This document shows positions 12,803 to 63,709 of a stretch of 64,000 bases of DNA, piece by piece. A program made the translations under genes and the position numbers. How positions within the stretch are numbered: position 1 is the first letter of the stretch; the number at the start of each line of letters is the position of its first letter. The notes beneath the pieces are model-generated. The model made no database searches, had not been told where the DNA came from, and saw nothing but the letters and a program-made list of their open reading frames with translations. Source of the DNA: an uncultured Nitrososphaerota archaeon (GTDB taxonomy: Archaea; Thermoproteota; Nitrososphaeria; Nitrososphaerales; Nitrosopumilaceae); the NCBI GenBank assembly GCA_963701075.1, contig OY969559.1:1408001-1472000 (forward strand), written 5' to 3'.

Positions 12803-13846
12803 ATGAAAGCAGCATATGTAAAAGGACCATCAAATGTGGAGATCAAAAATGTTGAGAGGCCACAAATAGGATATAATGACATCATAGTAACGATGAGATC
12901 TTGCGGGGTATGCGGATCAGATCTGGAAAAAATCTATGGTCAATACAGTCAGCCTTCCATGAGGCTTGGGCATGAGCCATCAGGAATAGTCTCCGAGACA
13001 GGATCCAACGTGAAAGAATTCAAAAAAGGAGATAGAGTTTTTGTACATCATCATGTACCATGTTACTCTTGTCACTTTTGCTTACATGGAAATGAAACAA
13101 TGTGTCAAAAGTATTCCGAAACAAATCTTAGTCCATGTGGTCTTGCAGAGGAATTTCTTGTCCCAGACTGGAATGTTTCCCATGGCGGAGTGATAAAGTT
13201 ACCAGACCATGTTAGCTTCGACGAGGCTTCTATGATAGAACCACTTGCGTGTTGTGTTAGAGCATGGAGTAAAATCAAATTCAAGCAAGGAGACTCGGTT
13301 GCAATTCTTGGTGCAGGGCCTACTGGTATGATGCATGTAATGTTAAGCAAGATTTTTGGTATGAAAGATATTTTTTGTTTTGATATAAACAACTTTAGAT
13401 TAAGTTTTGCCAAGCAATTTGGAATAACAGAATCTATTCTTTCTACGGATCCTAATGCACATCAAAAAATTCTTGCCAGTACACAGAATAGAGGAGTAGA
13501 CGTCGTAATAGTGTCAACAGGAAGCCTAAACGCTATTGCACAGTCGATAGAGATTGTCAGAAAAGGCGGAACCGTTGTCCTTTTCGGAGTACCATCAAAA
13601 GATGCAAAGATGTCTATAGATATCAGCAAAGTATACTCAAAGGAGATTACCATAACACCAAGTTATGCAGCATCTGAGACTGATACAAATGTGGCATTCA
13701 AACTAATAGAAGAAAAAAAAATAGATGTGAGTAAATTGATTACACATAGATTCGATCTTTCCGAATCCGCAAAAGCACTTGAATGCGCTCACCTGGGAAA
13801 TGACTCAATGAAGATAATTGTAACAAATTCAGAAAGGCTTAACTAA
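12803..13846 (+). CDS. zinc-dependent alcohol/polyol dehydrogenase (MDR family)
   Basis: CGVCGSD, GHE, CxxCxxC..C structural Zn site, GAGPTG. Confidence 0.92.
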   Translation: MKAAYVKGPSNVEIKNVERPQIGYNDIIVTMRSCGVCGSDLEKIYGQYSQPSMRLGHEPSGIVSETGSNVKEFKKGDRVFVHHHVPCYSCHFCLHGNETMCQKYSETNLSPCGLAEEFLVPDWNVSHGGVIKLPDHVSFDEASMIEPLACCVRAWSKIKFKQGDSVAILGAGPTGMMHVMLSKIFGMKDIFCFDINNFRLSFAKQFGITESILSTDPNAHQKILASTQNRGVDVVIVSTGSLNAIAQSIEIVRKGGTVVLFGVPSKDAKMSIDISKVYSKEITITPSYAASETDTNVAFKLIEEKKIDVSKLITHRFDLSESAKALECAHLGNDSMKIIVTNSERLN

Positions 13847-40653: not shown

Positions 40654-41739
40654 TTATTCGGTACTATTCATAATTTTGGTTGAAATATCAATCGTTTTTG
40701 CTAATAGACTTGCCAAACACAAATACTCGATTGTTTTGAATGGGTCATCCTGCACGATTTCATCGTGAACCGTCGGATTTCGTATTCCTTGTATTGAACC
40801 TGCAAACAGATTCATGAATCCTAGTTGTTCGTCTTTTTCAGTCTTAGTTCTAAGCTGATTTAATCTCAATATTGGAGAATTTGGGCTAAAGACCGTTTGC
40901 ATTAGAGGAACTCCATCCAAATCATGCCTCTCTGATTTACTCTTTACCATATGGGTTATCCTCTTGAGAGCTTCGGTTATTGCTTGAGCGTAGTGTCCGT
41001 CTTTGAAGAGTTTTGAGCTTACACGTTTTATCTCAGGATGCAATTCTAAAGATTCAAAAATTTGAATGTGTTTAGGAAGTTTAGCATTTCCAGATGAAAG
41101 TTTTGGAGGATAGGCTTGTGCGTATTTCGGTACGCCGTTTGAATGTTTACCCACATACACAATAAAATCTAATTTCGTAACAGCCATTGTTATAGCGCGT
41201 TTTGTAAAAGCATATCCTTCAGATTTAGCAAAATTCTGAATATCCCATAAACTAACGGGTTTTGAAAATTTTCCCGATTCCCACATCGTACGAATGAATT
41301 CTACTGGCAATCTAATTACTTCCGATTCGGTCTTCTTTCCATCTTCAATGATCTCTAATGTAATGTGTTTTCTAGTAAAAACTGAGTGAGTATTACTAAA
41401 AATAAGATATAGTGTTTGGTCCTCAACTATATTCAATTTGACAGAGTGTTCTACGGTTTTAGCAATTTTATGAACTACATCTTTTGGAGTATAAATAGTA
41501 GCATTAGACTGTTGGGCTGGAAGCTCACTAAACCATTTAAGAAAAGGCGCTTCATTCATTACATAAAATCCTATATCATAAACCAAGTCGTTGTTTCCTT
41601 GTTTTACCGAAAATTTGATTGTAATTTCTCGATCTATTTTTCCATTGCGATAAGAATGGTAAGGAACGAAATACCATCCATAAAGACTAGTACCTAGTGT
41701 GAAAGTTTTTGAAAAGGTAGACACCTGAGTTTGCTTCAT
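40654..41739 (-). CDS. multidomain protein with C-terminal TIGR02391 (Hypoth_Ymh)-like domain
   Basis: LHPEI..S..LF.DGHYAQAITEALK..DGVPLM..FS..EQLGFMNLFAG..GIRNP..H. Confidence 0.8.
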   Translation of the reverse strand: MKQTQVSTFSKTFTLGTSLYGWYFVPYHSYRNGKIDREITIKFSVKQGNNDLVYDIGFYVMNEAPFLKWFSELPAQQSNATIYTPKDVVHKIAKTVEHSVKLNIVEDQTLYLIFSNTHSVFTRKHITLEIIEDGKKTESEVIRLPVEFIRTMWESGKFSKPVSLWDIQNFAKSEGYAFTKRAITMAVTKLDFIVYVGKHSNGVPKYAQAYPPKLSSGNAKLPKHIQIFESLELHPEIKRVSSKLFKDGHYAQAITEALKRITHMVKSKSERHDLDGVPLMQTVFSPNSPILRLNQLRTKTEKDEQLGFMNLFAGSIQGIRNPTVHDEIVQDDPFKTIEYLCLASLLAKTIDISTKIMNSTE

Positions 41740-41822
41740 ACTAGAAAGTTAGAAAAGATCTAGAATTTAAGCAAAATGCCACAATGGTTCTTTTTTATTT
41801 AGACGAAGCCCCACCTCACCAC

Positions 41823-42542
41823 TTAGAGTTTTTTGATTTCCATATCGGCAAAAAGAGAATCTTCTTCATCCAAATCATCTTCCAACTCATCCTTATCTGC
41901 GTTGACATCCATATGTTCTCCCATTAACTCTAAAACCCTTCCCCATGGCCCTAGCATTTTGTAGAAAGTATTCACTGAAAAATTAGATAGATTTGGTAGG
42001 TTTAGTATTCCGTTCGAGCCAGCCATGTATATTTGGCCATCAGTATCAAGTATGACACAGTTTTTGTACGTGTCTACAAGACTTGAGATTTTTGTGTCTT
42101 TTGTCTCATATAGATATGGAGACAATGAAGTCATAGTACTGAGAATTCCTTTATCAGATACTGTAACAGTGGCTTTTCTGCCTTGAATTGTGTAGAAACT
42201 CTCTACTAGAGACGTTGTATTGAGTTGCTCTATTGGGATAGGCCAAGCATACACATCTCGACCTTCAGGAATTACACTATTGTTTTGAGAATAATTGGAT
42301 ACAAATGAGAAGTGGGATTCGCTTGGAAAGAGGTCAAAATCTATGGGTTCATAGAATGTTTTGTCATAGTTATTCTTCATGTGAACTTTGCCGCTCTTAT
42401 GAAAGCTTATCTTATAGCCAGAATCTCCTAGAAACCAGTATACATCACCTTCGGGGGAAAAGTCTAGCTTGAAGTAGTTCGCATTACCTTGTTCATCAAC
42501 CATGTTAAATTTGAAAGTCCTGATATCAGGATACTTTATCAT
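41823..42542 (-). CDS. hypothetical protein with acidic C-terminus
   Basis: 239-aa ORF, no recognised motif. Confidence 0.65.
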   Translation of the reverse strand: MIKYPDIRTFKFNMVDEQGNANYFKLDFSPEGDVYWFLGDSGYKISFHKSGKVHMKNNYDKTFYEPIDFDLFPSESHFSFVSNYSQNNSVIPEGRDVYAWPIPIEQLNTTSLVESFYTIQGRKATVTVSDKGILSTMTSLSPYLYETKDTKISSLVDTYKNCVILDTDGQIYMAGSNGILNLPNLSNFSVNTFYKMLGPWGRVLELMGEHMDVNADKDELEDDLDEEDSLFADMEIKKL

Positions 42543-42566
42543 GATAAGTAATGGTTGAAGATCTTG

Positions 42567-42902
42567 TTATCTTTTACCTAATTTCTTGTTATCATCCACG
42601 GATAATTCTTCTAACACGTCTTCCTGTTCAAATCTTACCATTTGTTGTCCTATTCCGACTTCAGCGTCGCTCTTGAACCTGAACATGCGTCTTAGTCCGT
42701 CTGGTCTTACGAGAGATATTTCCGACCCTTTTGTAGCTGCGTTATAGATCTTCCAGACTTGTTGGCTAGGCAAATCATTGTTTACCATACCAAGATCTTC
42801 GTCTTCTATCCAGAAGCCCCGCACTTCACACTCTAAGAATGATATGTAAGCAGTTCGAATAGATAGAATTTCTTCAGACATTGCGATAATCACTTTGGAC
42901 AT
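42567..42902 (-). CDS. hypothetical protein
   Basis: 111-aa ORF. Confidence 0.55.
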   Translation of the reverse strand: MSKVIIAMSEEILSIRTAYISFLECEVRGFWIEDEDLGMVNNDLPSQQVWKIYNAATKGSEISLVRPDGLRRMFRFKSDAEVGIGQQMVRFEQEDVLEELSVDDNKKLGKR

Positions 42903-43005
42903 TTCGATTTAATAGATCAAGGTAATATCATAATACCCAAAAATCTCTATTTTGGAAGAAAAATCTAAGATCATGTTGATATAAGATTAAGACAGATTCG
43001 ACCTA

Positions 43006-43653
43006 ATGTCTTTTGATCTGTTAGAAAAAATACAACAATTGATAGATTCTGGAACTGGAGATGTTGGAAGACTGCAATATATCCTTGAGACATTACAAAA
43101 TGGAAGAAAACTATACAATTCTGACCAAAGTTACCTCAATAAGCTTCTGAATAACCACGATGGACATATTACTATCCAGCCTGAAGAAGATAAGAGTCCA
43201 GTAAGATCTAATGACGATTCAGCTGAGTATATTCCTCCAAAACAAAGTAAACCAAAAAAACCCGGTCCATTATATGGTGTAAGTTATCATCCACATACTG
43301 GCGATAGTGTCAAAATTCATCATGGCTCCTGCCGACATGTAAGACTTGCATCTCAAAGAGGACAAACAAGATGGAATTTTGTACATGGATATCAAGAGGC
43401 AAAATCTGAAGCCGAATCTATTGCAAGCAGTCAAGGAGCATATTGGAAAAATGCTCAATGTTGTCTGAATGGAATGATTAGTAGGACTACAGGTAGTGCA
43501 TTGTTTCTTGCTCTTTTTCCATTTCTTGGACTTTTAGGAGGTCTGATAGTAAGAGAATATCATCCTACGTTTGGAAAAGGTTTGATGTATTTTGGTTTGG
43601 CATACGGTATTTTTGCAGTAGTGTTGTATTTTGCCAGTCAGGTTGCTAGATAG
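43006..43653 (+). CDS. hypothetical membrane protein
   Basis: N-terminal GDVGRLQYI..L..GRKLYNSD module, H/C-rich middle region, two C-terminal TM helices. Confidence 0.7.
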   Translation: MSFDLLEKIQQLIDSGTGDVGRLQYILETLQNGRKLYNSDQSYLNKLLNNHDGHITIQPEEDKSPVRSNDDSAEYIPPKQSKPKKPGPLYGVSYHPHTGDSVKIHHGSCRHVRLASQRGQTRWNFVHGYQEAKSEAESIASSQGAYWKNAQCCLNGMISRTTGSALFLALFPFLGLLGGLIVREYHPTFGKGLMYFGLAYGIFAVVLYFASQVAR

Positions 43654-43655
43654 TC

Positions 43656-44540
43656 ATGGACAGCAACAAGATAAGGAAAAATCCAATCCATTTGATTAAT
43701 TCAGATGAAAACATTCTAAAAGTATTGGAGCAAAGCAACGAATATTTCAAATCAAATAACGAGATGTCTTCAAGAATTGAAGAAAATCTTTGGATCTTCC
43801 GTTCGCTAAAAGATTTGGAACCAGCTACCCCTGAAGATCTTTTGCTAGGCTACAGATTTCCTTTAATAGAAACAAACTCGGAGTTTGAAAGTTCTATCGC
43901 CCTATGTAAATTTGGATTTTACAAACATGCTTTCATCGCATTGAGAAGCGTTTTAGAGCTTGGGATTCTTTCTGCATATTGGAATGCAGATGAAGGTAAT
44001 CATCTCGATATACGAAAATGGCTTGTATCGCTTGAAGATACTCCGTCTAGAAAGACTGTTTTTACAAAGCTCAAAAAGAATCAAAACTTCTTGAAATTTG
44101 ACAATAAACACAGGTGCTTCTCTGAGGGAGATGATCTTTTCAGACAGTTATCTAATTTTGTACACACAAAAGGACATCGTCATTCTAGTGTAGATTTAGG
44201 AAACGCCAATTTCAATCGTTTTAAGGAAGAATCATTATTGAAATGGTTGGACTTGATGACCAGAGTTACTAAATTTGTTGTTATCTTGCACATTCTTAAA
44301 TATCCTGTAGCGTTACAACATACTCCAATTGAACAAAAGTTCGGTATCAATGGACCAGCTGGAGGATTCTTCGAACCTTATCAAACCGAAAGAATAAAAC
44401 AATTTTTAGGCAAAGACGTGATAATTACTTTACAAGAAATAAGCAATAATGACCCCACAGCAATAAGCAGAGCAAAATGGGTAAATGAGCAACCCGATAT
44501 AACTTATGAAGAACTCCAGATACAGATGGGAGAAATTTGA
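43656..44540 (+). CDS. hypothetical protein, HEPN/DUF5677-like helical domain
   Basis: A.IALRSVLE and FRQLSNFVH motifs. Confidence 0.6.
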   Translation: MDSNKIRKNPIHLINSDENILKVLEQSNEYFKSNNEMSSRIEENLWIFRSLKDLEPATPEDLLLGYRFPLIETNSEFESSIALCKFGFYKHAFIALRSVLELGILSAYWNADEGNHLDIRKWLVSLEDTPSRKTVFTKLKKNQNFLKFDNKHRCFSEGDDLFRQLSNFVHTKGHRHSSVDLGNANFNRFKEESLLKWLDLMTRVTKFVVILHILKYPVALQHTPIEQKFGINGPAGGFFEPYQTERIKQFLGKDVIITLQEISNNDPTAISRAKWVNEQPDITYEELQIQMGEI

Positions 44541-50226: not shown

Positions 50227-51147
50227 TTATACAATAATCGGCCCGCTTCCCACTATACGTATTGTTTGTGATTCGGGTTTTAAAATCACGCAGATGTCGT
50301 TTTTTACAAATGACGCGGGTTTATTGAGGGAGAGTTTCATGGGTTTGAGAGATATTATTTTGGCAGCTCTTGTCTGCAGACCAATATTGACAAGAAATGT
50401 CTGGTTTTCTGTCAGATTATCCTTGAAGAATTTATTTTGCAAATAATCTAATGCGATATCTTGCGATACATGGATTTCGTCACCAACACACAATTGGTCC
50501 CCCCTTTGAACATCATCAGATACAATTCCCTTTACTGCAAGTCCTACTCGTGCCGGGGATACAGCCTCTTCGACTGGATCATCATGCATCTGGATTGATT
50601 TTATCACAACCTCGTCTCCTTTTGGCAATAGCTTGAGTTTGTCGTATGCCTTGATTTTACCTTGTGCAACTTTGCCAAGTATAACGGTACCTACACCTTT
50701 TACATCAAAACAGTGATCAATTGGAATTCGTGCATTTCCTTCTTGAGATACCGGCTCCAAAGAGTCCATTTCCTTTCTGAGATCTGATAGTTCCACCAGT
50801 TTGTATTGTTCCACAACAGTTCCTTTTATCATCAAAAGGAGTTTTTCTCGGTCTACCTCATAAGAGTGAGTCAGTAATCCTTTGTTCTTTTTTAGTACAT
50901 CAAGTGCAACAATCTGCTCACCTGTGAATTTATCGAGTTTAGATACGTGAAAAATGACATACTCTCCCATGTGTATGGCCTGAAGAAGTGGAGGAATCTT
51001 TTCAGGAAAACCCGTAGGTATGGTCCATGTTTTTACAAAATCTGCATCTTTTTTATCATATATAGTAATATCAGTAGCAGTCCCTTTTTTGCCAAAATCC
51101 TTGGCTATTGATTCATCGCCAAGTAATGTGTAATTGATTGATTTCAT
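50227..51147 (-). CDS. archaeal SelB-like/EF-Tu-like translation factor (aSelBL type, degenerate G domain)
   Basis: GKKGTATDI, IDHCFDVKGVGTVILG, IKSIQMHD, RVGLAVKG. Confidence 0.85.
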   Translation of the reverse strand: MKSINYTLLGDESIAKDFGKKGTATDITIYDKKDADFVKTWTIPTGFPEKIPPLLQAIHMGEYVIFHVSKLDKFTGEQIVALDVLKKNKGLLTHSYEVDREKLLLMIKGTVVEQYKLVELSDLRKEMDSLEPVSQEGNARIPIDHCFDVKGVGTVILGKVAQGKIKAYDKLKLLPKGDEVVIKSIQMHDDPVEEAVSPARVGLAVKGIVSDDVQRGDQLCVGDEIHVSQDIALDYLQNKFFKDNLTENQTFLVNIGLQTRAAKIISLKPMKLSLNKPASFVKNDICVILKPESQTIRIVGSGPIIV

Positions 51148-51266: not shown

Positions 51267-51581
51267 CTATACCACGCCTGTTTTATGTACAGTAACAAGA
51301 CCGTTATCTCCAATAATTTCTTTAATTGCTGGCAATATGCTTTCGATTTTTTCTAGATCATCAATTACCTCTATGATTAGTGGCATGTTAACTGATATCC
51401 CCTCTATCTGAAAATTGGATTTTCCTCGTTTACCATATCCAGATACTCCAGTCCACACAGTAGCTCCAGAAATATCACCTTTCTTTAGAATGTCCAATAT
51501 CAGGTTATGAACACGTTTTCCCTTGAATGTATCATTACGCTTTATCCTTATCACAAGTGACCACATGTCTAGAGCTCTCAT
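51267..51581 (-). CDS. DUF190 (PII-like) protein
   Basis: GATVWTGVSGYG, NMPLIIEVID; ATGA overlap with crcB, the usual pairing. Confidence 0.9.
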   Translation of the reverse strand: MRALDMWSLVIRIKRNDTFKGKRVHNLILDILKKGDISGATVWTGVSGYGKRGKSNFQIEGISVNMPLIIEVIDDLEKIESILPAIKEIIGDNGLVTVHKTGVV

Positions 51582-51967
51582 CTAAATCCCCCACCCAAAA
51601 TCACACTTGTTAAAGCCCTGCCGCCAAATATGGCTCCAAGTGACAATCCCACGTTAGTCATGACATTAATTGCAACTATCAGGTATTGTTTGTTATCAAT
51701 TAGATTTGAAGTTTCAAGCGCAAATGAGGACATGGTGGTCAGTCCTCCACAAAACCCGATTGCTACAAGCAACGCGTATTTTTCATCGAGGTTCCATTGC
51801 TGTGAAAAGACTGCAAATGCCCCAAGAATAAAACTTCCAATTACATTTACAAGCATTACGTTTAGAGGCAATGCACCAAGTAGTAGTGGCGATTTTGTAA
51901 TACCGTACCTTAGGAATGTCCCAGCCGTTCCCCCTGCTGCAAGAAATATCAGTTCTATCATTTTCAT
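51578..51967 (-). CDS. crcB: fluoride efflux channel Fluc/CrcB
   Basis: GGTAGTFLRY, VNVIGSFILG, GFCGGLTTMSSF. Confidence 0.95.
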   Translation of the reverse strand: MKMIELIFLAAGGTAGTFLRYGITKSPLLLGALPLNVMLVNVIGSFILGAFAVFSQQWNLDEKYALLVAIGFCGGLTTMSSFALETSNLIDNKQYLIVAINVMTNVGLSLGAIFGGRALTSVILGGGFR

Positions 51968-52100
51968 ACCTGACTAGCGCAATAGTTGCTTAAATTATCT
52001 ACATTTTTGTGGCTTCCAATACTGTAGAGAAAAATTTTCCCCCTAGACTTTATCGTATAACCAGATTTCAAAAACATCAAGAAGAGAATTAATTTACGAA

Positions 52101-53270
52101 TCATTGGTCAAATCTATCTGCCCAGTGTTTTCTCTCTTCGTATTGAGTAGGACCAGTTGGACCTACAACTTCGTTTGCTCTTGCTAGTTCTTGTTTTGTT
52201 ACCCTACTGCTCCACCAGAAAACTCCTATTGCTACAACTACACCAAATGCCGCCATTGAATATATCACTTGGACTGGATAATCACCAGTTGACGAGATAC
52301 CGCTGCCTTGAGGTGCCTGCGGGCTTGAACCAAAATATTCTATTTCATTGATATCTGTCACAGCTACGTAACCATCAATCTGAATACTGGCCAAGCTTGC
52401 TCTTTCTGTGTAGCTGACTGGATAATCCACATCCAATTTCAAATCAGCATTCTTAACAGTTGGAAGCATCCGCCCTTCACTAATGTTGCTCTCGCCAGTA
52501 CTATATGTGGAGATAACTATTTTTTGTCCCTTATATCCAAGAATATTGGTATCGACCAGCGTATAGGCTGGGTCAAACAGGTGTTGCCACTGAGATATGG
52601 GATCAAGCAGAAGATCATTTGATGCCATCAATGGATCGTCAAATAGATTCTCTGCCGCAGTACCCTGCAACTTGTTGTAAAGATCTGGAGATTGCATTTT
52701 TATAAAATCGATTGGCGAGTTAAGGTCAAACTGGCCATAGTTTTGGATGTTTACTAGCATGGTGCCATTTATCGTAAGCCCCATCCACTGGACATCAAGT
52801 ATTGCTGCACTGTCACTTGTGGCCTTTCTTAACACATAATTTGATACAGTTGGAATAAATGTTATCTTATAATCTACATGAGTTTCTGAATTGCTAGAAT
52901 ATAGCATTGCCTCATATGTAATATCAACATCTGTGATGTTTGCAGCACTACCCAGCCCTTGAGATATTTTTTGGTTAAGACTGTTTATCAGTACTTTCTT
53001 CATTGGATCAGATGGGTCAACATGGTAAGTCATGGTAACATTTTTTCCGATAAGAAGATTCTCCAGATTTCCCCCGTTTGGATAATCAATCACATATGAC
53101 CTTTGAAATTGAAATGATGGTTGTGCACTAGTTGATGTAGTGCTAAGCACTGCATTCAGCTCTACTGCATTTGCAGGTACAACAAGTCCTGCAAGAACAA
53201 TCGCTGCAAGTATTAGAGAATAAGATAGATGTTTTCCCGCACCACTTTTGTTTTTGATTTTTGTGTTCAT
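52101..53270 (-). CDS. secreted, C-terminally membrane-anchored protein under a fluoride riboswitch
   Basis: Signal peptide (..PANA-VE), C-terminal TM and tail; ATG 53270 lies directly after the riboswitch expression platform. Confidence 0.8.
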   Translation of the reverse strand: MNTKIKNKSGAGKHLSYSLILAAIVLAGLVVPANAVELNAVLSTTSTSAQPSFQFQRSYVIDYPNGGNLENLLIGKNVTMTYHVDPSDPMKKVLINSLNQKISQGLGSAANITDVDITYEAMLYSSNSETHVDYKITFIPTVSNYVLRKATSDSAAILDVQWMGLTINGTMLVNIQNYGQFDLNSPIDFIKMQSPDLYNKLQGTAAENLFDDPLMASNDLLLDPISQWQHLFDPAYTLVDTNILGYKGQKIVISTYSTGESNISEGRMLPTVKNADLKLDVDYPVSYTERASLASIQIDGYVAVTDINEIEYFGSSPQAPQGSGISSTGDYPVQVIYSMAAFGVVVAIGVFWWSSRVTKQELARANEVVGPTGPTQYEERKHWADRFDQ

Positions 53271-53295
53271 TTGTCTACCTATCAATTTCCATTAG

Positions 53296-53359
53296 GTAGA
53301 CATTATCAGCATCATTTGATGCGGTTTAGAATTTTTATTTCAAGGCTAATGTCATAGCC
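53296..53359 (-). ncRNA. fluoride riboswitch (crcB motif), copy 1
   Basis: GGCUAUGACAUUAGCC..AAACCGC..GCUGAUAAUGUCUAC: P1 GGCUA/UAGCC, pseudoknot GACAU/AUGUC; crcB ~1.3 kb downstream. Confidence 0.85.
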
Positions 53360-53446
53360 TATCATGCTGTATTACATGGTGCTTTTAAGGCTTTTTATGA
53401 GTTGAATATGGTCATTTAATTTGAAACGTGAAAAGTTCTTTTTCAT

Positions 53447-53935
53447 TCATGCCGGTTTTGTTTTGTCCTTGGTGTAAAAGTCAAGGAAGGATTCAAAGTC
53501 TATTGGCTCGTCTAAAATTTCTGATATTTTTGCTACTTTATTTGCTACAGAAACACATTGTTGTCTGAAATCATCTTCGTTAAATTCTATTACAGTTAGT
53601 TTTGTCTTGATGTCTTGAATCTCATCTTTTAATTTAGCATTAACAACTAGTATCACTCTCAATCCTTTTCCTTGTGCATAGCCTATCTCTTGATTAAGCA
53701 GACTTGAATTGAGAAGATTCGAAGTTAGAATCGCAATAAAACAAATGGATGAACGAATCATATCTTTGAGTTCAGTTGAAATGAAATTGCCGTGAGAGTC
53801 TCCACCTGCCATGAAAGCCCCAAATCCTTTTTCTTCAAGTATCGATTCTAAGGTAGATGCTTTTTTATGATCTTCTTTGTCATAGCACACAAACACCTTA
53901 AATTTTCCACGGGTCTTCTTGTCTTCTGGTGTCAT
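53447..53935 (-). CDS. standalone TIR-domain protein
   Basis: KVFVCY..D..A..L...L...G, IRSSICFIAILT.N.LNS..LNQEIGYA with the conserved Glu. Confidence 0.8.
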   Translation of the reverse strand: MTPEDKKTRGKFKVFVCYDKEDHKKASTLESILEEKGFGAFMAGGDSHGNFISTELKDMIRSSICFIAILTSNLLNSSLLNQEIGYAQGKGLRVILVVNAKLKDEIQDIKTKLTVIEFNEDDFRQQCVSVANKVAKISEILDEPIDFESFLDFYTKDKTKPA

Positions 53936-54054
53936 TTTACCTCAATTTTTCCTGATCTATCATCGTTGATTATAATGTTTAATCGGCATGAAAGTTTCTT
54001 CCAGTTAAGACTAACTCTTCTACGTGTAATTTTGGCATCTAGTTTGTATTTCAT
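53932..54054 (-). CDS. 40-aa basic uORF between riboswitch 2 and the TIR gene (not in ORF track)
   Basis: MKYKLDAKITRRRVSLNWKKLSCRLNIIINDDRSGKIEVK*; ATG at the same position relative to the riboswitch as in copy 1; TGA overlaps the TIR ATG (ATGA). Confidence 0.6.
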   Translation of the reverse strand: MKYKLDAKITRRRVSLNWKKLSCRLNIIINDDRSGKIEVK

Positions 54055-54080
54055 TTGTCTACCCATCTAATTTCCATGTG

Positions 54081-54144
54081 GTAGACATTATCAGAGCCCA
54101 TAGGACACGGTTTTGGTTTTTACACCAAGGCTAATGTCATAGCC
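54081..54144 (-). ncRNA. fluoride riboswitch (crcB motif), copy 2
   Basis: GGCUAUGACAUUAGCC..AAACCG..CUGAUAAUGUCUAC; TTATAAAT box ~27 nt upstream. Confidence 0.8.
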
Positions 54145-54229
54145 GCGTATTCTGTAACCTTCTAGATCACATTTATAATTTTTGGTCAATGTGCGGTTTG
54201 TTTCATGTTTATACAATAATAGAAAAAAG

Positions 54230-54769
54230 TCAGCTTCTAAGATACCGTCCCATCAGTTCAGTTTGGTCTATTACGTGTCCATTCATAGCTTGTTCCAAAT
54301 CACTTCTTGTTGCATTCTGATCAAGATTAAGAGTAGCGTCCAAGGCATAAAGGGTAAAGAAGTATCTATGTGTTCCAGAGTGAGGACATGGCCCTTTGTA
54401 GCCATGCGTTCCAGCACTTGTAACTCCTTGAGGAAACATTACGTCTTCGCCTGCATAGAACGTGGTGTTATTGATTGGAATATTCCACATTGTCCAATGC
54501 GTAAATGGTCCTTTTGGCGCATCAACATCAACAACAGTGAGTGCAAGACTTTTTGCAGTTTGTGGAACACCAGATATCGCAAGGGGAGGTGAGATGCTAT
54601 TACCATCACATGTATATTGTGACGGAATAGTTCCATTATTTTCAAATGCCGAACTGGATAACACAAAAGTTTGATCATGTCCTATTTGAATTACATTTTC
54701 CTGTACAAGTAAGAAAGATATTGTAAAAATTGCGGCAGCAATAGGTATTACATAAATCAAAGATCGCAT
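54230..54769 (-). CDS. YbhB/YbcL-family (PEBP) protein
   Basis: YTCDG..SPPL, DVDAP..FTHW, GPCP..GTHRYFF.LYALD. Confidence 0.92.
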   Translation of the reverse strand: MRSLIYVIPIAAAIFTISFLLVQENVIQIGHDQTFVLSSSAFENNGTIPSQYTCDGNSISPPLAISGVPQTAKSLALTVVDVDAPKGPFTHWTMWNIPINNTTFYAGEDVMFPQGVTSAGTHGYKGPCPHSGTHRYFFTLYALDATLNLDQNATRSDLEQAMNGHVIDQTELMGRYLRS

Positions 54770-54879: not shown

Positions 54880-55956
54880 GTGGTCGTAGACGTAATTAGG
54901 ACAATCAATAGAGTTGGCAAGTGGTCTTTGAATAGAGCAGTTGGAAAAAGGAGACCTCTGATTGCAGTTTTTAGCCTCACCCATTATTGTAATTATTACT
55001 GCCCCATGTGTCCATTTGGAGATCCAGACAAGCAAGGACAGATAAAGTTTGCAAGTAAAAATGACTTGACAACTGATCAATGGAAGCAGATTTTTGATAA
55101 AGTTGCAGAGTATTGCATTTGGTCCATAATAGAGGGCGGAGAACCTACAAGCAGACCTGATTTCATGGAGCTTGTGCGCCACGTGTACAGCCTCAAATTA
55201 CCTATCACGTTGATTACAAACTGTTCATTGTTACATACAATTGATCTTGATGAACTAAAAAACTACGTTCAGTTCATTACATGTAGTATAGATTCGGTAT
55301 TTGAAGAATCTTATTGCAAAGTTCGCGGAGTTACTCCTCAGATGTATCAACGCGTAATGCAAAACCTACAATTGTTGACAGAACACAAGGTACCACATTA
55401 CTTCAATTCGGTCATAACCAAGTTTAACACAAAAGAATTCATCGACAAATCATATTTTAAAAGGGCAAAAGAGCTTGGCGTAAGTTCAGTTTCTCTGACC
55501 TTTGTAGAAGACAGATCAGATGTAGATTATTCTCTGCTTCCTGACAGGGAGACCATTGTGAAAGTTTGCCAGAGTGTACTTGAACACATTCACAGTAAAG
55601 AAGATCCTCAAATCATGATCCCACCGCAATACTTTGAACAGATAATCGAACACGGTCGTGGCATGTATGATGAGTGCGGGGTGTGGAAGAGCATCTTTGT
55701 GAATGGAAATGGCACAGTCATGGTACCATGCTGGAAATATAGCAAACCAGAGAACACGTACAACCTTCTTGAAAAGAGCGTGGACGAAATCTGGAGTGCG
55801 CCACAGTGGGAGATTGCAAAGACATGCCATGACTGTGAAGTGTTGGGATGTATATGGTATTCTTCACAGCCGGTAACAACTTTTGCCCAAAACTATATGC
55901 GAGGGCTATCCAAGATGATTAACCAGCGTGTTCCTGAAACAGCACAGCAAATCTAA
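54880..55956 (+). CDS. radical SAM protein with SPASM/twitch domain
   Basis: CNYYCPMC, GGEPT, C-terminal C..GTV..PC..CHDC..GC. Confidence 0.9.
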   Translation: MVVDVIRTINRVGKWSLNRAVGKRRPLIAVFSLTHYCNYYCPMCPFGDPDKQGQIKFASKNDLTTDQWKQIFDKVAEYCIWSIIEGGEPTSRPDFMELVRHVYSLKLPITLITNCSLLHTIDLDELKNYVQFITCSIDSVFEESYCKVRGVTPQMYQRVMQNLQLLTEHKVPHYFNSVITKFNTKEFIDKSYFKRAKELGVSSVSLTFVEDRSDVDYSLLPDRETIVKVCQSVLEHIHSKEDPQIMIPPQYFEQIIEHGRGMYDECGVWKSIFVNGNGTVMVPCWKYSKPENTYNLLEKSVDEIWSAPQWEIAKTCHDCEVLGCIWYSSQPVTTFAQNYMRGLSKMINQRVPETAQQI

Positions 55957-56828
55957 TTGTTTTTTTGTGCAACAATCAGATCTACTTTGTAATTCAAACT
56001 TAGCCTAGAATTCATGTTTAATTTCCATGGAATAAAGCTTGGATTGATTGTTCTTTGAATTAATTTAAATCCAGTATTCTTCAAGTATGATCTTAATTCT
56101 TCTGGACTTGTTTTTGATTTTACAGAGTTTTTCCCTCGCTCAAAGTCATATGGGTCTGACAACACAAGAAATCTCTTGGATTGGTGTGAAACAATCTGCA
56201 AAAGTTCGGATGGTTCTACAATATCAAGCAAGTTTAAGGCAATTACCAAATCAAATTTTTTATCCCCAAAAGGAGTGTTTAGTGAGTCAGCTACCATAAA
56301 ATCGGAATTTTTTCTTTGGCGCCTTTTTGCTTCCAGAATCGCATAAAATGATTTATCTATTCCAAATACACGAGAGTTTTGTTTTGCAGATTCTCTTGCC
56401 ACAGAACCTATTGAACATCCATGTTCCAGTACAAGGTCGCATCTAGGTAATTTTTGAATCGAGTTTTTGACATGCGCGTAGAATTTTGAGCCCATGCTAC
56501 GTTTGTAAATCCCGGTCCAGTTTCTTTCCAAGTCCGAAGTATCTTCAGATGCACGGTTTATCTTTCTCAAGGCGTTCTTTACAAATGACTTCATTTTTGG
56601 AGATTTGGCCATTAACATCAACTGACCCCCTAGTATCATCCTAATTGAGAGGTACGACGAAAAGTGGTCTATCATGAAAGGTACAGAAGATATAACAGGA
56701 TAATTATGACCGCATTTTACACAATTGAGAAATCCTTCTTGGATTTCTTCACTAGATACCAATGATTCAATTGATAGATCTGACTTGCATATTATGCAGC
56801 GCAAATATTCCACGGTAAAGTCAAGCAA
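55953..56828 (-). CDS. Trm112-like Zn-ribbon plus class I SAM methyltransferase
   Basis: CIIC..CVKC N-terminus; VLEHGCSIG, GIDKS, FDLVIA. Confidence 0.85.
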   Translation of the reverse strand: MLDFTVEYLRCIICKSDLSIESLVSSEEIQEGFLNCVKCGHNYPVISSVPFMIDHFSSYLSIRMILGGQLMLMAKSPKMKSFVKNALRKINRASEDTSDLERNWTGIYKRSMGSKFYAHVKNSIQKLPRCDLVLEHGCSIGSVARESAKQNSRVFGIDKSFYAILEAKRRQRKNSDFMVADSLNTPFGDKKFDLVIALNLLDIVEPSELLQIVSHQSKRFLVLSDPYDFERGKNSVKSKTSPEELRSYLKNTGFKLIQRTINPSFIPWKLNMNSRLSLNYKVDLIVAQKNN

Positions 56829-61532: not shown

Positions 61533-63709
61533 TTGGTAAAAAAAGACGAGCTACTCCAGATGCGCGTTGGAGAAGCTAAGCAGAGAGACGTAGGCAAAAG
61601 ACGCGCCAGGATAGAACCTGAAGTTATGGAATTTTTAAAAGTTGAACCAGGAGATATGATAGAGATCGTAGGGAAAAAATCTGAGCTGTGCAATAGTATG
61701 GCCAGCAGACGATGATAACAAAGCACCAGACATGGTCAGAATAGATGGTCAGACAAGAAAGAATGTCGGTGTCGGAATAAACGATCTGGTCAATGTTAGA
61801 AAAGTTGTCGCAAAGCCAGCAAAAAGTGTAGTCTTGATGCCAGTTAATGGAAATGTTACAGTAGATAAGGAATTTACAGATTTTGTCAAAAACAGGCTAA
61901 AGGGTTTGCCCCTTTCTGAAGGAGATGAGATATCAGTGATGATTCTTGGAAATTCCATGGACTTTAAGATACACAAGATTTCACCAAAGAGCGTAGCCAA
62001 GATAGACCGTGGCACCGCACTTACCATTTTAACTGACACGTCGGTTGACAAAAAGGCACGGGTTACATACGAGGAGATAGGTGGACTTAGAGCACAGATA
62101 GACCGAATGCGTGAGATCGTAGAACTTCCATTAAAACATCCCGAAGTGTTCAGTAGATTAAACATAGAACCACATAGCGGAATTCTCTTGTATGGACCTC
62201 CAGGATGCGGAAAGACATTGATTGCAAAAGTACTTGCAAGTGAATCAGAGGCCAATTTCTATTCCATAAATGGTCCTGAGATAATGAACAAGTATTATGG
62301 AGAGACAGAGGCAAGACTTAGAGATATTTTCAAGGAAGCAAAAGACAATGCCCCAAGTGTAGTATTCATCGATGAAATTGATGCCATTGCTCCAAAAAGA
62401 GAAGAAGCTTACGGCGATGTTGAAAAAAGAGTGGTAGCTCGAGCTGTTGGCATTAATGGATGGCCTGACAGATAGAGGCAATGTCATCGTACTGGGGGCA
62501 ACAAACAGGCCAGAAAGCGTAGACCCCGCATTGAGAAGACCTGGCAGATTTGACAGAGAGATAGAAATCTCAGTACCAAATGCAGATGGCAGATTAGAGA
62601 TTTTACATATCCATACAAGAGGAATGCCTATTGCAGATGATGTTGACCTGAAGGTTCTTGCAGCAGAGCTTCATGGATACACAGGCGCCGATATCAAATC
62701 GCTTTGCAGAGAGGCAGCAATGAAAGCTCTTAGAGCATTTTTGCCAGAGATTGAGATGGAGACTGAAAAGATATCACCTGCAATATTGCAGAAGATGACC
62801 ATACGTCTTCAAGACTTTTACGATGCAACACACGAAATTGTTCCAACTGCAATGAGAGAGTTCTACGTCGAAAGTCCAAAAGTATGGTGGAAAGATGTAG
62901 GTGGACTAGATGACGCAAAAAGAACACTAAATGATAATTTGATTACAGCCATAAAGGAACCAGCAAAATTTCAAAAGATGGGCATCAAACCTCCAAAAGG
63001 CGCTTTGCTCTATGGACCTCCAGGATGCGGAAAGACAATGCTTGCAAGAGCACTTGCAACAGAAAGCGGTGGCAACATGATATTTGTCAGAGGAGCAGAG
63101 ATCTTGTCAAAATGGGTAGGTGAATCTGAAAAGGCAATAAGAGAGATTTTCAGAAAGGCAAAAGCATCATCACCATGCATTATAATTTTTGACGAACTTG
63201 ATTCGTTGGCAAGATCAAAATCACTTGAAGAAGGAGGAGGAGTTGGAGAAAGACTACTCAGCCAGTTGCTCACCGAGATGGAAGATGGCGGAGCTGCAAG
63301 AGTGATAGTTGTTGGAATTTCCAATAGACCGGATCTGATAGATCCCTCGTTGTTAAGACCCGGTCGCTTAGATTTGATACTCTTCATCCCGCCGCCTGAA
63401 GAAAAGGGAAGATTTGAGATAATTAAGACGCTTACACGACAGATGCCACTAACTGGAGATGTCGACTTGAAGGAGATTGCACTTTCAACAAAGGGATACA
63501 CAGGCGCTGACTTGGTAGCAGTATGCAGAGAGTCCGCAGTACAAGCAATGAGAAATAATACACCAAAAATCAGTAGCATGGACTTTGCCGCGGCATTAAA
63601 AGTCATCAAGCCTTCAATCACCAAAGGCGTTGAAGATTGGTATTCTGCAATCAAAGACAATATATCGTACGCATTACCCAAGCCAATTGACAAGGCATTT
63701 TATGGTTAG
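61533..63709 (+). CDS. cdc48: CDC48/p97-family AAA+ ATPase; two +1 frameshifts (~61683, ~62441), probably errors
   Basis: N domain RDVGK..RI, two GPPGCGKT Walker A motifs, RPGRFD and RPGRLD, spread over three ORFs. Confidence 0.95.

Follow-up and report, generated by a model that had tools for sequence, protein, structure and literature searches.

Organization of the locus and its riboswitches

The window (the whole stretch of DNA that was analysed, 64,000 nucleotides, from an ammonia-oxidising archaeon of acid soil) contains a standalone TIR gene with a dedicated riboswitch cassette; all features described below lie on the minus strand. The gene encodes a protein of 162 aa (53447..53935; Pfam TIR_2, 44.1 bits). 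It is preceded by a short upstream ORF (uORF) of 40 codons plus stop (53932..54054), which runs from the cassette's own AUG to an ATGA at the TIR start. Upstream of the uORF are the expression platform hairpin, UGUCUACC...GGUAGACA (54055..54086), found in both MFE and centroid folds, and the aptamer of a fluoride riboswitch variant (RS2, 54075..54153; RF01734, 30.3 bits). An A/T-rich, TATA-like box, TTATAAAT (54172..54179), read by eye, stands ~20–26 nt 5' of the aptamer and is the putative archaeal promoter of the RS2-uORF-TIR unit. The original prediction had described a 40-aa basic ORF overlapping a 162-aa TIR gene as ATGA, and all of these elements are in place.

The next unit downstream starts with a canonical fluoride riboswitch (RS1, 53290..53368; RF01734, 41.8 bits), followed by an operon of four ORFs (51267..53285). 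Specifically, the operon contains a gene for a 394-aa protein without family (52101–53285), a 46-aa ORF (51964–52104), crcB (51578–51967), and a DUF190 gene (51267–51581), the latter two assigned with Pfam and NCBIfam. We compared this region with orthologous TIR loci of other assemblies. There are eleven distinct loci, namely the window, L016, L017, L018, L019, L020, L021, L022, L023, L024, and L028, and all are from Nitrosotalea-type archaea; L029 and L030 duplicate L020 and L022, and L006 is the same locus as L024. The gene order of the RS1 operon recurs in L020 and L022 and, with a 507–511-aa gene, in L017 and L018. An A/T-rich box is present in L016, L017, and L019 at the alignment position matching that of the putative promoter.

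Pfam searches of the neighbouring proteins found no Thoeris-type effector within ~13 kb on either side of the TIR gene, as the original prediction had noted for the adjacent genes. Likewise, no ThsA-type effector, as would be marked by a SIR2, Macro, or TM domain together with SLOG, was found among the neighbours between positions 40 and 64 kb of the window or among 16 Pfam-scanned proteins of related loci, and the only SIR2_2 ORF of the genome is 233 kb away from the TIR gene. Nothing in the TIR neighbourhood points to NAD metabolism. A defence-island context was considered and rejected: the PADLOC matches of neighbouring genes are generic (a radical SAM, SPASM-domain gene matching pVip at 60 bits, and a methyltransferase matching mad2), and these radical SAM and methyltransferase genes belong to the syntenic core of all loci.

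RS2 matches RF01734 with an E-value of 3.4e-6 locally and 1.4e-6 genome-wide, and is absent from a default Rfam scan because its score is below the gathering score of 34. The missing bits stem from P2, in which two pairs are non-canonical according to the model. Read by eye, P2 (GUGUCC/GGGCUC) has six pairs with one U.U mismatch; where the window and L028 have a U.G pair in P2, L016 and L017 have U-A, and a pyrimidine-U mismatch within P2 is frequent among the lineage's above-cut-off copies. The P1 stem (GGCU/AGCC), the pseudoknot complement (GACAUU in the loop and AAUGUC in the tail), and the CUGAU core are all intact; the pseudoknot register was assigned on the assumption that it follows the T. 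petrophila structure. The segment CUGAUAAUGUCUAC of RS2 is identical to RS1, and the two riboswitches have aptamer, platform hairpin, and start context in common. RS2-type variants also precede the TIR genes of L016 (32.7 bits), L017 (31.5 bits), and L028 (30.8 bits), and L019 has a canonical fluoride riboswitch at the same place (40.2 bits). R1, a lineage-specific model built from sequences that include RS2 itself, scores RS2 at 114.1 bits.

RS2 has the same P1, P2, 6-bp pseudoknot, and core as the crcB-motif fluoride riboswitch, a member of which stands upstream of crcB at the same locus, and the archaeal copies presumably follow the same ON logic. They differ from typical RF01734 members in having an additional hairpin insertion and a translational platform of fixed form that includes an AUG.

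The expression platform and the uORF

In both MFE and centroid folds, 2 nt separate the platform hairpin from the uORF AUG. The 5' arm of this hairpin shares bases with the 3' strand of the aptamer pseudoknot, and an RGGU Shine-Dalgarno-like element lies in the 3' arm; the 3' end of the 16S rRNA is GGAUCACCUCCU. The motif GTCTACC-N-GGTAGAC-AA-ATG was found in 15 of 19 cassettes. All cassettes in these genomes are paralogues of one another, each supplying its own AUG and A-rich first codons, and arrays contain up to five of them in 8.4 kb. This fits the idea of a TIR gene that captured a duplicated riboswitch, which was one of the two readings offered originally. The captured copy is neither recent nor private to this genome, as the RS2-type cassette is orthologous at loci whose TIRs have diverged to 68% identity. 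Seven of 17 cassettes with the platform motif lead into uORFs of 34–59 codons that stop on the start of the next gene, and such uORFs precede DUF6659 and Lrp-like genes as well as TIR genes.

The predicted product of the uORF in the window (MKYKL...IEVK) has 12 K+R versus 4 D+E. An alternative frame of 44 codons starts from an upstream ATG at 54066, within the platform hairpin; we prefer the 40-codon reading because the orthologue L016 does not share the 54066 start. The complete module of riboswitch, uORF, and TIR gene was found in five loci (the window, L016, L017, L019, and L028), and a uORF of 34–40 codons with the same start (MKYKL) is present in all five. The uORF stop either overlaps the TIR start or stands 3 nt before it in every module, as ATGA in the window, L016, and L028, as TTGA in L019, and as TAA-AAA-TTG in L017, so that the start codon and frame of the TIR gene vary around a fixed geometry.

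Sequence conservation is concentrated at the two ends of the uORF. Identity of the interior is 0.27–0.77, versus 0.8–0.93 for aptamer and platform. At the end of the uORF, a block AAAAATTGAG(GT) (53936..53948) is invariant in all four aligned modules. The block contains a Shine-Dalgarno-like GAGGU that is complementary to the 3' end of the 16S rRNA and stands 3 nt upstream of the TIR ATG; in L017 and L019, the TTG at which the TIR gene starts lies within this block, and GGAG and GAGGAG precede these TTG starts. When the uORF interior was shuffled, the frame stayed open in 486 of 20,000 shuffles. The pN/pS of three close pairs is 0.19–0.47, which hints at coding constraint, the values being derived from just 7–15 changes.

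Several other identities of the uORF were considered. A functional peptide family was rejected, as there is one database match (P0175, 78% identity, at E<=10) and the interior is poorly conserved. A remnant of a Zn-ribbon gene was rejected as well: compared by eye with the 72–75-aa Zn-ribbon genes of L020 and L022, nothing is alike past the MK start. A candidate internal promoter, TTAAACATTATRATC, is common to the window, L016, L028, and L017 and is absent from L019; it is unsupported as a general feature and may apply in the window. The original prediction had also raised the possibility that the uORF is a relic of the original gene of the riboswitch. Because its stop tracks the TIR start despite differing start codon and frame, the uORF looks more like a maintained relay than a decaying relic.

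The design resembles a bacterial system. In M. tuberculosis, a B12 riboswitch governs the uORF uPPE2, and termination-reinitiation at an AUGA accounts for most PPE2 synthesis (Kipkorir et al. 2024, PMC11260477). In both systems, a short uORF follows a riboswitch, and its stop overlaps the start of the next gene. The M. tuberculosis riboswitch is an OFF switch, and its mechanism was demonstrated by experiment (PMC11260477), whereas the archaeal system has a fluoride switch, presumed to be ON, is known from sequence, and recurs before several gene families in a duplicating cassette.

The TIR protein and its linkage to fluoride riboswitches

The TIR protein is assigned to TIR_2 (PF13676; E 3.4e-11, 44.1 bits against a cut-off of 28, and 44.5 bits in a genome scan) and to TIR (PF01582; 23.6 bits against a cut-off of 21.3). 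Its nearest protein Atlas clusters are all TIR_2, and no NDT- or MilB-type Pfam family matches it at E<=0.01. The AlphaFold model has a pLDDT of 77 and contains five beta-alpha units. The best match among 48161 chains in the VIA search is the plant TIR 4c6t_A, with Z of 16.0 and rmsd of 2.4 (129 residues aligned), which is 2.5 Z units above the next entry. Further TIRs (5teb, 8p2m, and 9fqm among them) have Z of 13.5–12.3, MilB 12.6, NDT 12.1, and CheY-like proteins ~11.5. In Foldseek, flavodoxins, MilB/BcmB, DNPH1, and TIRs are intermixed with TM of 0.45–0.62, and a PDB profile search returned BcmB at E 0.51. Structure prediction, proposed originally as a means to separate TIR from nucleoside deoxyribosyltransferase-like folds, favours TIR in VIA, while Foldseek alone fails to separate them.

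We identified 26 homologues of 49–100% identity, and all source names given for them are Nitrosotalea, Thaumarchaeota, or Nitrosopumilaceae. The Glu of the NQEIG motif, correctly noted in the original prediction, is E83; it is retained in 24 of the 26 homologues, with Gly in P0026 (the L024 lineage) and Val in P0017, and in 9 of 10 rows of a wider TIR alignment. By the S77-x5-E83 spacing, we equate E83 with the catalytic alpha-C Glu (S-x-W-C-x-x-E type), and the N-terminal KVFVCYxKED together with this spacing presumably fits the TIR motifs. Bacterial TIR NADases have an aromatic residue 4 positions before the Glu; the residue here is Leu. The protein combines the TIR fold with the catalytic-type Glu, and its most likely activity is cleavage of NAD+ or of a related nucleotide. 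For NAD+-type N-glycosidase activity, our estimate falls clearly short of even odds.

The family forms a narrow, vertically coherent clade in the tree (support 98/98) and has a conserved acidic/aromatic C-terminal tail, EILDEPIDFESFLDFY, that is absent from generic TIRs. Standalone prokaryotic TIRs (TIR_2; ThsB of Thoeris) are likewise 130–185 aa long, with a TIR fold and a Glu in the catalytic place. Unlike ThsB, the present TIR has no adjacent ThsA or other effector, has a ThsB_TIR score under the cut-off, carries the family-specific tail, and very probably belongs to an ion-stress regulon, not to a defence island. TIR paralogues of other ammonia-oxidising archaea (the P0029–P0043 type, SVNQE[IL]GYAxGxG) have 28–31% identity to it (P0043, 22%) and have the NQE-GYA-G motif around the Glu in common with it, but differ in their N- and C-terminal extensions, many being fused into longer ORFs. 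One further locus, L053 (G301), also contains a paralogue, which tblastn with the TIR of the window misses at 1e-3.

The original prediction suggested looking for riboswitch-TIR linkage in other genomes, and such linkage is found: the module is present in five assemblies, and in 10 of the 11 orthologous loci a fluoride-riboswitch cassette lies on the same strand, no more than 2.3 kb upstream of the TIR gene. With Rfam at E<=0.01, an upstream riboswitch was detected in 9 of 10 loci scanned (L006 and L024 both included), plus L028; the riboswitch of L021 scores 19.8 bits with Rfam and 74.2 bits with R1. In the eleventh locus, L018, the TIR gene stands 60 nt after a PEBP gene with no riboswitch upstream, directly before the riboswitch-crcB operon.

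Six gene arrangements account for the ten linked loci. Besides RS, uORF, TIR (five assemblies), they are RS, 390-aa gene, crcB, DUF190, Zn-ribbon gene, TIR; RS, uORF, DUF6659, ferredoxin-like gene, Zn-ribbon gene, TIR; RS, uORF, DUF6659, TFB, TIR, Lrp-like gene; RS, 511-aa gene, TIR; and weak RS, 63-aa ORF, TIR, crcB, DUF190, where the 63-aa leader ORF (L021) stops 104 nt before the TIR start. The linkage and the co-orientation persist through rearrangements, the order of which the TIR tree leaves unresolved, and in L020 and L021 the TIR gene lies within the crcB operon itself. The loci are non-independent because all come from one genus-level clade. In a sample of the genus, TIR orthologues were found in 4 of 31 genomes, and all four lie within 2.3 kb downstream of a same-strand riboswitch. 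No riboswitch was found within 1.5 kb of paralogous TIRs in other ammonia-oxidising archaea (0 of 10 loci), or, at the gathering threshold, at 10 loci of distant TIRs (eight bacterial or metagenomic, two from other genera of the window's family).

A probable fluoride-induced TIR gene

The best explanation, to which we assign a probability of about 0.6, is that the TIR gene is a fluoride-induced accessory gene of Nitrosotalea-type acidophilic ammonia oxidisers, turned on via termination-reinitiation. Its membership of the fluoride-stress regulon is the most secure part and is very likely; that the uORF acts as a relay to the TIR gene is probable, with less confidence.

Under this explanation, the promoter 5' of RS2 would produce a single transcript containing aptamer, platform, uORF, and TIR. 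In the absence of fluoride, the hairpin UGUCUACC/GGUAGACA, which abuts the uORF AUG, would hide the weak Shine-Dalgarno-like RGGU. With fluoride bound, the aptamer pseudoknot would capture the first bases of the 5' arm of the hairpin, and the weakened hairpin would allow the uORF to be translated. Ribosomes would end the uORF at the UGA within the AUGA, just past the GAGGU, and reinitiate on the TIR cistron. The peptide itself is probably irrelevant; the uORF would serve as an adaptor between a cassette with a fixed built-in start codon and a gene with its own start. During fluoride intoxication, the TIR protein may slow metabolism or make a signal.

A translational relay would be dispensable if riboswitch and TIR gene were co-transcribed but the uORF were a by-product of a cassette with its own AUG having landed before a complete gene, the TIR cistron being translated from its own Shine-Dalgarno and RS2 acting weakly or indirectly, for instance through mRNA stability or translation-dependent protection from premature termination. 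TIR translation might indeed be independent of the uORF, because the gene has its own GAGGU and its start region is weakly paired in the MFE fold; the elements preceding the TTG starts of L017 and L019 and the distant leader stop of L021 agree with this. We nevertheless consider this reading unlikely. The stop is kept within 3 nt of the TIR start, or overlapping it, in 5/5 modules although frame, length, and start codon change, the same stop/start geometry recurs ahead of two other gene families, and the frame is open in all copies, in contrast to the shuffled interiors. Another alternative concerns the enzyme. A TIR/flavodoxin-like fold could operate without NAD+ cleavage, either as an NDT/MilB/DNPH1-type N-glycosidase acting on another nucleotide or as a non-catalytic adaptor that binds a partner via the conserved acidic C-terminal tail. 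The mixed Foldseek matches, MilB and NDT Z values near those of most TIRs (12–13.5), the loss of the Glu in 2/26 homologues, and the strong conservation of a tail missing in generic TIRs are all compatible with such a protein. It is unlikely in view of the two TIR families matched above cut-off with no NDT-type family, the lead of 4c6t_A in VIA, Atlas clusters that are exclusively TIR_2, and N-terminal and S-x5-E motifs that presumably fit those of TIRs.

The gene could also serve in ordinary antiviral defence, as an orphan NADase or ThsB-like sensor located in a variable hotspot by crcB, in which case the riboswitch would be near it merely because of the hotspot. The patchy distribution in the genus, the variable content of the PEBP-crcB slot, the absence of an upstream riboswitch in L018, and weak matches to ThsB (PADLOC, best E 3e-5, 21.3 bits; NCBIfam Thoeris type III ThcB4, E 1e-4, 21.3 bits against a cut-off of 220; Pfam ThsB_TIR, PF08937, 19.3 bits against 21.2) are what would be expected of such a gene. 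Taken with the rest of the evidence, this is distinctly improbable. Neither an effector nor any other defence gene is adjacent in the window, and the Pfam domains in related loci are those of regulators, transporters, and redox proteins. Chance proximity in a hotspot is also difficult to reconcile with the shared orientation downstream of a riboswitch in 10/11 loci, the dedicated riboswitch in five assemblies, the position within the crcB operon in L020 and L021, and a coherent clade with its own C-terminal motif. Because the other variable genes of the PEBP-crcB slot are also riboswitch-driven, the slot behaves like a fluoride island, not a defence island.

A fluoride-induced TIR gene would extend what these riboswitches are known to control. 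The cassettes drive TIR, TFB, Lrp-like, and DUF6659 genes in addition to the known fluoride regulon, and we found no link in the literature between fluoride riboswitches and TIR, TFB, Lrp-like, or DUF6659 genes, or Nitrosotalea. Since the switches also drive TFB and Lrp-like transcription factors, the fluoride response would be layered. More tentatively, and on balance rather doubtfully, a TIR enzyme may have been recruited as an effector of inorganic-ion stress, a fluoride-induced N-glycosidase that, by reducing NAD+ or producing a nucleotide signal, pauses metabolism until CrcB clears the ion. The recruitment would have occurred through a self-contained, duplicating promoter-riboswitch-start-codon cassette that captures arbitrary genes by in-frame fusion of its first codons or through a short relay uORF. 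If true, the cassette would amount to a plug-and-play regulatory module of natural origin in archaea.

TIR-domain genes are best known from immune systems, and to our knowledge prokaryotic TIR domains have been studied almost solely in immunity, as NADases or as producers of signals. Consistent wiring of a TIR gene to a fluoride sensor would indicate a non-immune, stress-metabolic use of the fold, with a defined inducer for tests. The mechanisms of archaeal riboswitches are, as far as we know, barely characterised, and these loci provide a compact translational platform that occurs repeatedly and brings its own start codon, together with a putative uORF relay and with switches arrayed in groups of up to five. 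In the survey of McCown 2017 (PMC5473149), one riboswitch is counted in Thaumarchaeota. The cassette could be used as an inducible expression element for archaea.

At low external pH, HF crosses into the cell and the fluoride is then trapped inside, so that fluoride stress is severe. Nitrosotalea-type archaea carry out nitrification in acid soils, where HF permeation makes fluoride especially toxic, and their enlarged fluoride regulon may therefore belong to the adaptation to low pH.

Locus architecture and the two riboswitch copies

On the minus strand, a PEBP/YbhB gene (179 aa, 54230-54769) is followed by a 76-nt spacer, in which an A/T-rich TATA-like box was read by eye (54172-54179), the aptamer of fluoride-riboswitch copy RS2 (54075-54153), the expression-platform hairpin UGUCUACC...GGUAGACA (54055-54086), an upstream ORF of 40 codons (uORF; MKYKLDAKITRRRVSLNWKKLSCRLNIIINDDRSGKIEVK; 53932-54054) with 12 Lys and Arg versus 4 Asp and Glu, and the 162-aa TIR ORF (53447-53935), which starts in an ATGA overlap with the uORF stop. 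The short basic ORF and its overlap with the TIR gene, noted in the original prediction, are confirmed at these positions. A second copy on the same strand, RS1 (53290-53368), lies about 80 nt beyond the TIR ORF and drives a unit that encodes a 394-aa protein (52101-53285), a 46-aa ORF, crcB and DUF190.

RS1 scores 41.8 bits with the Rfam model RF01734, above the cut-off of 34. RS2 scores 30.3 bits, below it, so a default Rfam scan shows one riboswitch only. In a genome-wide scan, the two are the sole convincing fluoride-riboswitch copies of the 1.92-Mb genome, and their alignment runs from the aptamer through the hairpin to the start context GGTAGACAAATGAA. RS2 retains both the CUGAU core and P1 (GGCU/AGCC). 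Its 3' tail, AAUGUC, is complementary to GACAUU in the P1 loop, and we take this pairing to be the pseudoknot, in the register of the published T. petrophila structure. What lowers the score of RS2 is P2, where GUGUCC and GGGCUC form a stem of 6 pairs with a single U.U mismatch. This P2 variant is also found upstream of the TIR gene in the related loci L016 (32.7 bits), L017 (31.5 bits) and L028 (30.8 bits), with one pair changed from U.G to U-A in L016 and L017, and a canonical riboswitch (40.2 bits) occupies the position of RS2 in L019. Folding of the RS2 leader with RNAfold yields P1 and P2 together with an inserted hairpin and the platform hairpin (z = -3.06; 0/200 shuffles fold as well). 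Judged by its sequence, RS2 is a real fluoride-riboswitch copy.

The 394-aa protein has hydrophobic segments at its N-terminal and C-terminal ends and no family in Pfam, NCBIfam or PADLOC. Orthologues of 390-392 aa precede crcB in the same slot of L020 and L022, and in L017, L018 and L023 the slot is taken by a protein of 507-511 aa that weakly matches cupredoxins. A 306-aa protein (50227-51147, minus strand), with EF-Tu domain 2, weaker eIF2-gamma C-terminal similarity and no GTPase-domain match, is kept directly 3' of DUF190 in L018 and L021. Beside the PEBP gene, at 54880-56828, lie a gene for a radical SAM/SPASM protein (358 aa) and, convergent to it, a methyltransferase gene (291 aa, N-terminal Cys-rich segment); this synteny is shared by L017, L018 and L024, and partly by L021. 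The PADLOC pVip and mad2 matches of the two genes look like generic family similarity. Elsewhere in the window, a Hypoth_Ymh-domain protein (361 aa) followed by four ORFs of 111-294 aa without Pfam family (40654-44540), at a distance of about 9-13 kb from the TIR gene, may represent a small patch of variable or mobile DNA. A CDC48-type AAA ATPase appears divided between overlapping plus-strand ORFs, one with the N-terminal domains and a first partial AAA domain (61732-62475) and one with an AAA lid and the second AAA domain (62447-63709), which may be a real split or stem from a frameshift or sequencing error.

Linkage of the TIR gene to fluoride riboswitches

Every named homologue of the TIR protein comes from a Nitrosotalea, Thaumarchaeota or Nitrosopumilaceae assembly, and the organism is therefore termed Nitrosotalea-type. 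Eleven distinct orthologous loci were compared, namely the window, L016-L024 and L028 (L029 and L030 are duplicates of L020 and L022, and L006 and L024 are one locus). At E<=0.01, Rfam detects 18 fluoride riboswitches in 10 loci scanned, L006 and L024 both included, with at least one in 9/10; L028 also has one. The exception is L021, whose copy scores 19.8 bits with Rfam and 74.2 bits with R1, a model built from 21 cassettes (aptamer, platform hairpin and built-in AUG) of the Nitrosotalea-type lineage. A weak R1 match on the plus strand of the window (12954-13028; 22.7 bits, E 0.007, 75 nt of 114 model positions) is probably due to chance.

The surroundings of the TIR gene are shuffled. The order riboswitch, uORF, TIR (type A) is found in the window, L016, L017, L019 and L028. 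In L020, the riboswitch is followed by a 390-aa gene, crcB, DUF190, a 75-aa Zn-ribbon gene and TIR; in L022, by a 51-aa uORF, DUF6659, a ferredoxin-like gene, a 72-aa Zn-ribbon gene and TIR; in L024, by a 54-aa uORF, DUF6659, TFB, TIR and an Lrp/AsnC-like gene; and in L023, by a 511-aa cupredoxin-like gene and TIR. L021 has a weak riboswitch, a 63-aa ORF, a 104-nt gap, TIR, crcB and DUF190. In L018, TIR follows PEBP by 60 nt without a riboswitch upstream and precedes a riboswitch, a 511-aa gene and crcB. The 72-75-aa Cys-rich protein (CPKC...C..C) encoded directly before TIR, and overlapping its start, in L020 (3760-3987) and L022 (3704-3922) could be a partner for the TIR protein in these two arrangement classes.

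The linkage thus recurs in other genomes: in 10/11 loci the TIR gene has a same-strand cassette upstream within 2.3 kb, and the remaining locus, L018, abuts the crcB unit. In a 31-genome sample of the genus, 23 genomes have the riboswitch (1-3 each) and four have a TIR orthologue, in 4/4 cases downstream of a same-strand switch; these tallies take in unpublished genomes G077, G159, G165 and G173, from which none of the orthologous loci come. A switch was found within 1.5 kb in 0/10 loci of TIR paralogues from other ammonia-oxidising archaea (motif NQE[IL]GYAxGxG, 28-31% identity; one, L038, from unpublished G173). Among more distant TIR matches (eight bacterial or metagenomic, two from other genera of the window's family), 0/10 loci have a switch at the gathering threshold. 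The 11 loci all fall within a single genus-level clade, and the TIR tree supports the family clade at 98/98 and does not separate the order of the rearrangements. The argument for linkage rests on the shuffled arrangements, not on the locus count.

The start design of the cassette recurs throughout these genomes. GGTAGA[CT] is followed by ATG within 1-4 nt in 17/19 cassettes examined, of which nine open straight into long ORFs (172-511 aa; N-termini MN(T)K(N)KK), seven lead into ORFs of 34-59 codons that end on the start of the next gene, and one is cut by a contig end. The cassette therefore brings its own start codon and, as read across these loci, is joined to genes by fusion of first codons or via a relay uORF. 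Relay-type junctions beyond TIR precede an Lrp/AsnC-like gene (ATGA, L019) and DUF6659 (ATGTTGA, L022; a 17-nt overlap in L024, on our reading of the start). Every cassette shares the platform/start GGTAGACAAATGA and A-rich first codons (53255-53289 and 54040-54074 in the window), so that unrelated proteins begin MNTKNKK, MKTKNSK or MNKNKKK. The shared region is consistent with duplication of a promoter, riboswitch and start-codon unit and its in-frame fusion to new genes. Cassettes also occur in arrays, five in 8.4 kb of L019 (1248-7460) and three in L022 (2448-5752), with targets that include an MFS transporter, DUF6659, Lrp/AsnC-like and ferredoxin-like proteins and genes without known function; in L024, a TFB paralogue lies within a riboswitch-driven operon. 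The pattern suggests that the fluoride regulon of Nitrosotalea-type archaea is layered and includes transcription factors.

The uORF as a putative relay

In all five type-A modules, the uORF starts at the AUG of the cassette (MKYKL), spans 34-40 codons and ends on the TIR start, through ATGA (window, L016, L028), TTGA (L019) or TAA-AAA-TTG (L017). The TTG start of L017 and L019 was lost in the window lineage. There, the TIR gene begins at an ATG that lies 10 nt further downstream and in a different reading frame with respect to the uORF, and the uORF stop shifted together with it. The 10-nt junction block AAAAATTGAG is invariant in 4/4 aligned modules. Identity between modules is 0.27-0.77 in the uORF interior, 0.8-0.93 in aptamer and platform, and 0.5-0.9 in the TIR gene. 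Shuffled interiors remain open in 486/20000 cases, and one database protein resembles the uORF product. The pN/pS of 0.19-0.47, from three close, non-independent pairs with 7-15 changes, is too little for a claim of a selected peptide. The uORF appears to behave as a relay.

The platform suggests how switching could operate. The final bases of the pseudoknot strand AAUGUC are also the first of the 5' arm, (U)GUCUACC; the 3' arm, GGUAGAC(A), ends 2 nt before the AUG and contains an RGGU element with complementarity to the 16S 3' end GGAUCACCUCCU. Fluoride binding would stabilise the pseudoknot at the expense of the hairpin and so open the uORF to initiation, and ribosomes terminating there would sit at AUGA just 3' of GAGGU and could reinitiate on the TIR cistron. 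A bacterial case of this relay mechanism is published: in M. tuberculosis, as described for ppe2 in PMC11260477, a B12 riboswitch controls the uORF uPPE2, PPE2 expression needs uPPE2 translation, and PPE2 is made mainly by termination-reinitiation at AUGA. Dependence of TIR translation on the uORF and switch may not be strict, given that the TIR start comes with an SD-like element of its own, in a region weakly structured in the MFE fold, that 104 nt separate leader ORF and TIR start in L021, and that the L018 TIR gene has no upstream switch. The original prediction, coupling of a standalone TIR gene to a riboswitch-controlled uORF, is partly supported, in its riboswitch-TIR link and relay geometry.

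Taken singly, the riboswitch class, TIR domains and uORF relays are all known. Full-text searches found no literature linking the fluoride riboswitch with Nitrosotalea and nothing relevant linking it with TIR domains. A tally in McCown et al. 2017 (PMC5473149) counts one riboswitch in Thaumarchaeota in their data set, and the passages of Sherlock and Breaker 2020 (PMC7266159) that describe a fluoride 'super-regulon' do not mention TIR. As far as these searches reach, and subject to the associated-gene list and supplements of Baker et al. 2012, the combination of a conserved fluoride-riboswitch-to-TIR link, a duplicating cassette with built-in start and relay uORFs in an archaeon appears to be new. 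The riboswitch-uORF-TIR case is wholly computational.

Predicted identity and activity of the TIR protein

The 162-aa protein matches Pfam TIR_2 (44.1 bits, cut-off 28) and TIR (23.6, cut-off 21.3) and falls under the cut-off for ThsB_TIR (19.3 vs 21.2). Its AlphaFold model (26 homologues; pLDDT 77) has five beta-alpha units. Foldseek returns flavodoxins, TIRs and MilB/DNPH1-type N-glycosidases intermixed (TM 0.45-0.62). VIA-align over 48161 chains places plant TIR 4c6t_A first (Z 16.0, rmsd 2.4, 129 aligned), followed by other TIRs (Z 13.5-12.3), MilB (12.6), a deoxyribosyltransferase (12.1) and CheY-like receivers (about 11.5). By these profile and structure matches, the protein is a TIR domain. 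Among 1.84 billion representatives, a profile search gives only two clusters at E<=1e-30; P0027 (2.3e-25), with the C-terminal tail EILDEPIDFESFLDFY present, is one more distant family member, and generic TIRs lie beneath. In an alignment of the 26 homologues, this conserved tail is peculiar to the orthologue family.

The Glu of NQEIG said to be retained is E83, present in 24/26 homologues and replaced by Val in P0017 and Gly in P0026 (L024 lineage). The fold and the Glu point to an enzyme that would cleave the N-glycosidic bond of NAD+ or of a related nucleotide, and a fluoride-induced NAD+-type N-glycosidase is ranked first for the predicted activity, with a probability of roughly one in three. 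The loss of the Glu in two homologues and the conserved acidic tail leave room for an adaptor. No NAD-metabolism genes were found in the neighbourhood of the TIR gene. The reported lack of an adjacent Thoeris-type effector holds under Pfam searches of the window neighbours and related-locus proteins; the sole SIR2_2 ORF of the genome, 233 kb away (G000:C1:1227936-1228349, outside the window; at least 952 aa, 106.7 bits), may be a component of another system.

At low pH, HF influx concentrates fluoride in cells through weak-acid chemistry. Under such conditions, a metabolic brake or signal from the TIR protein would make sense.
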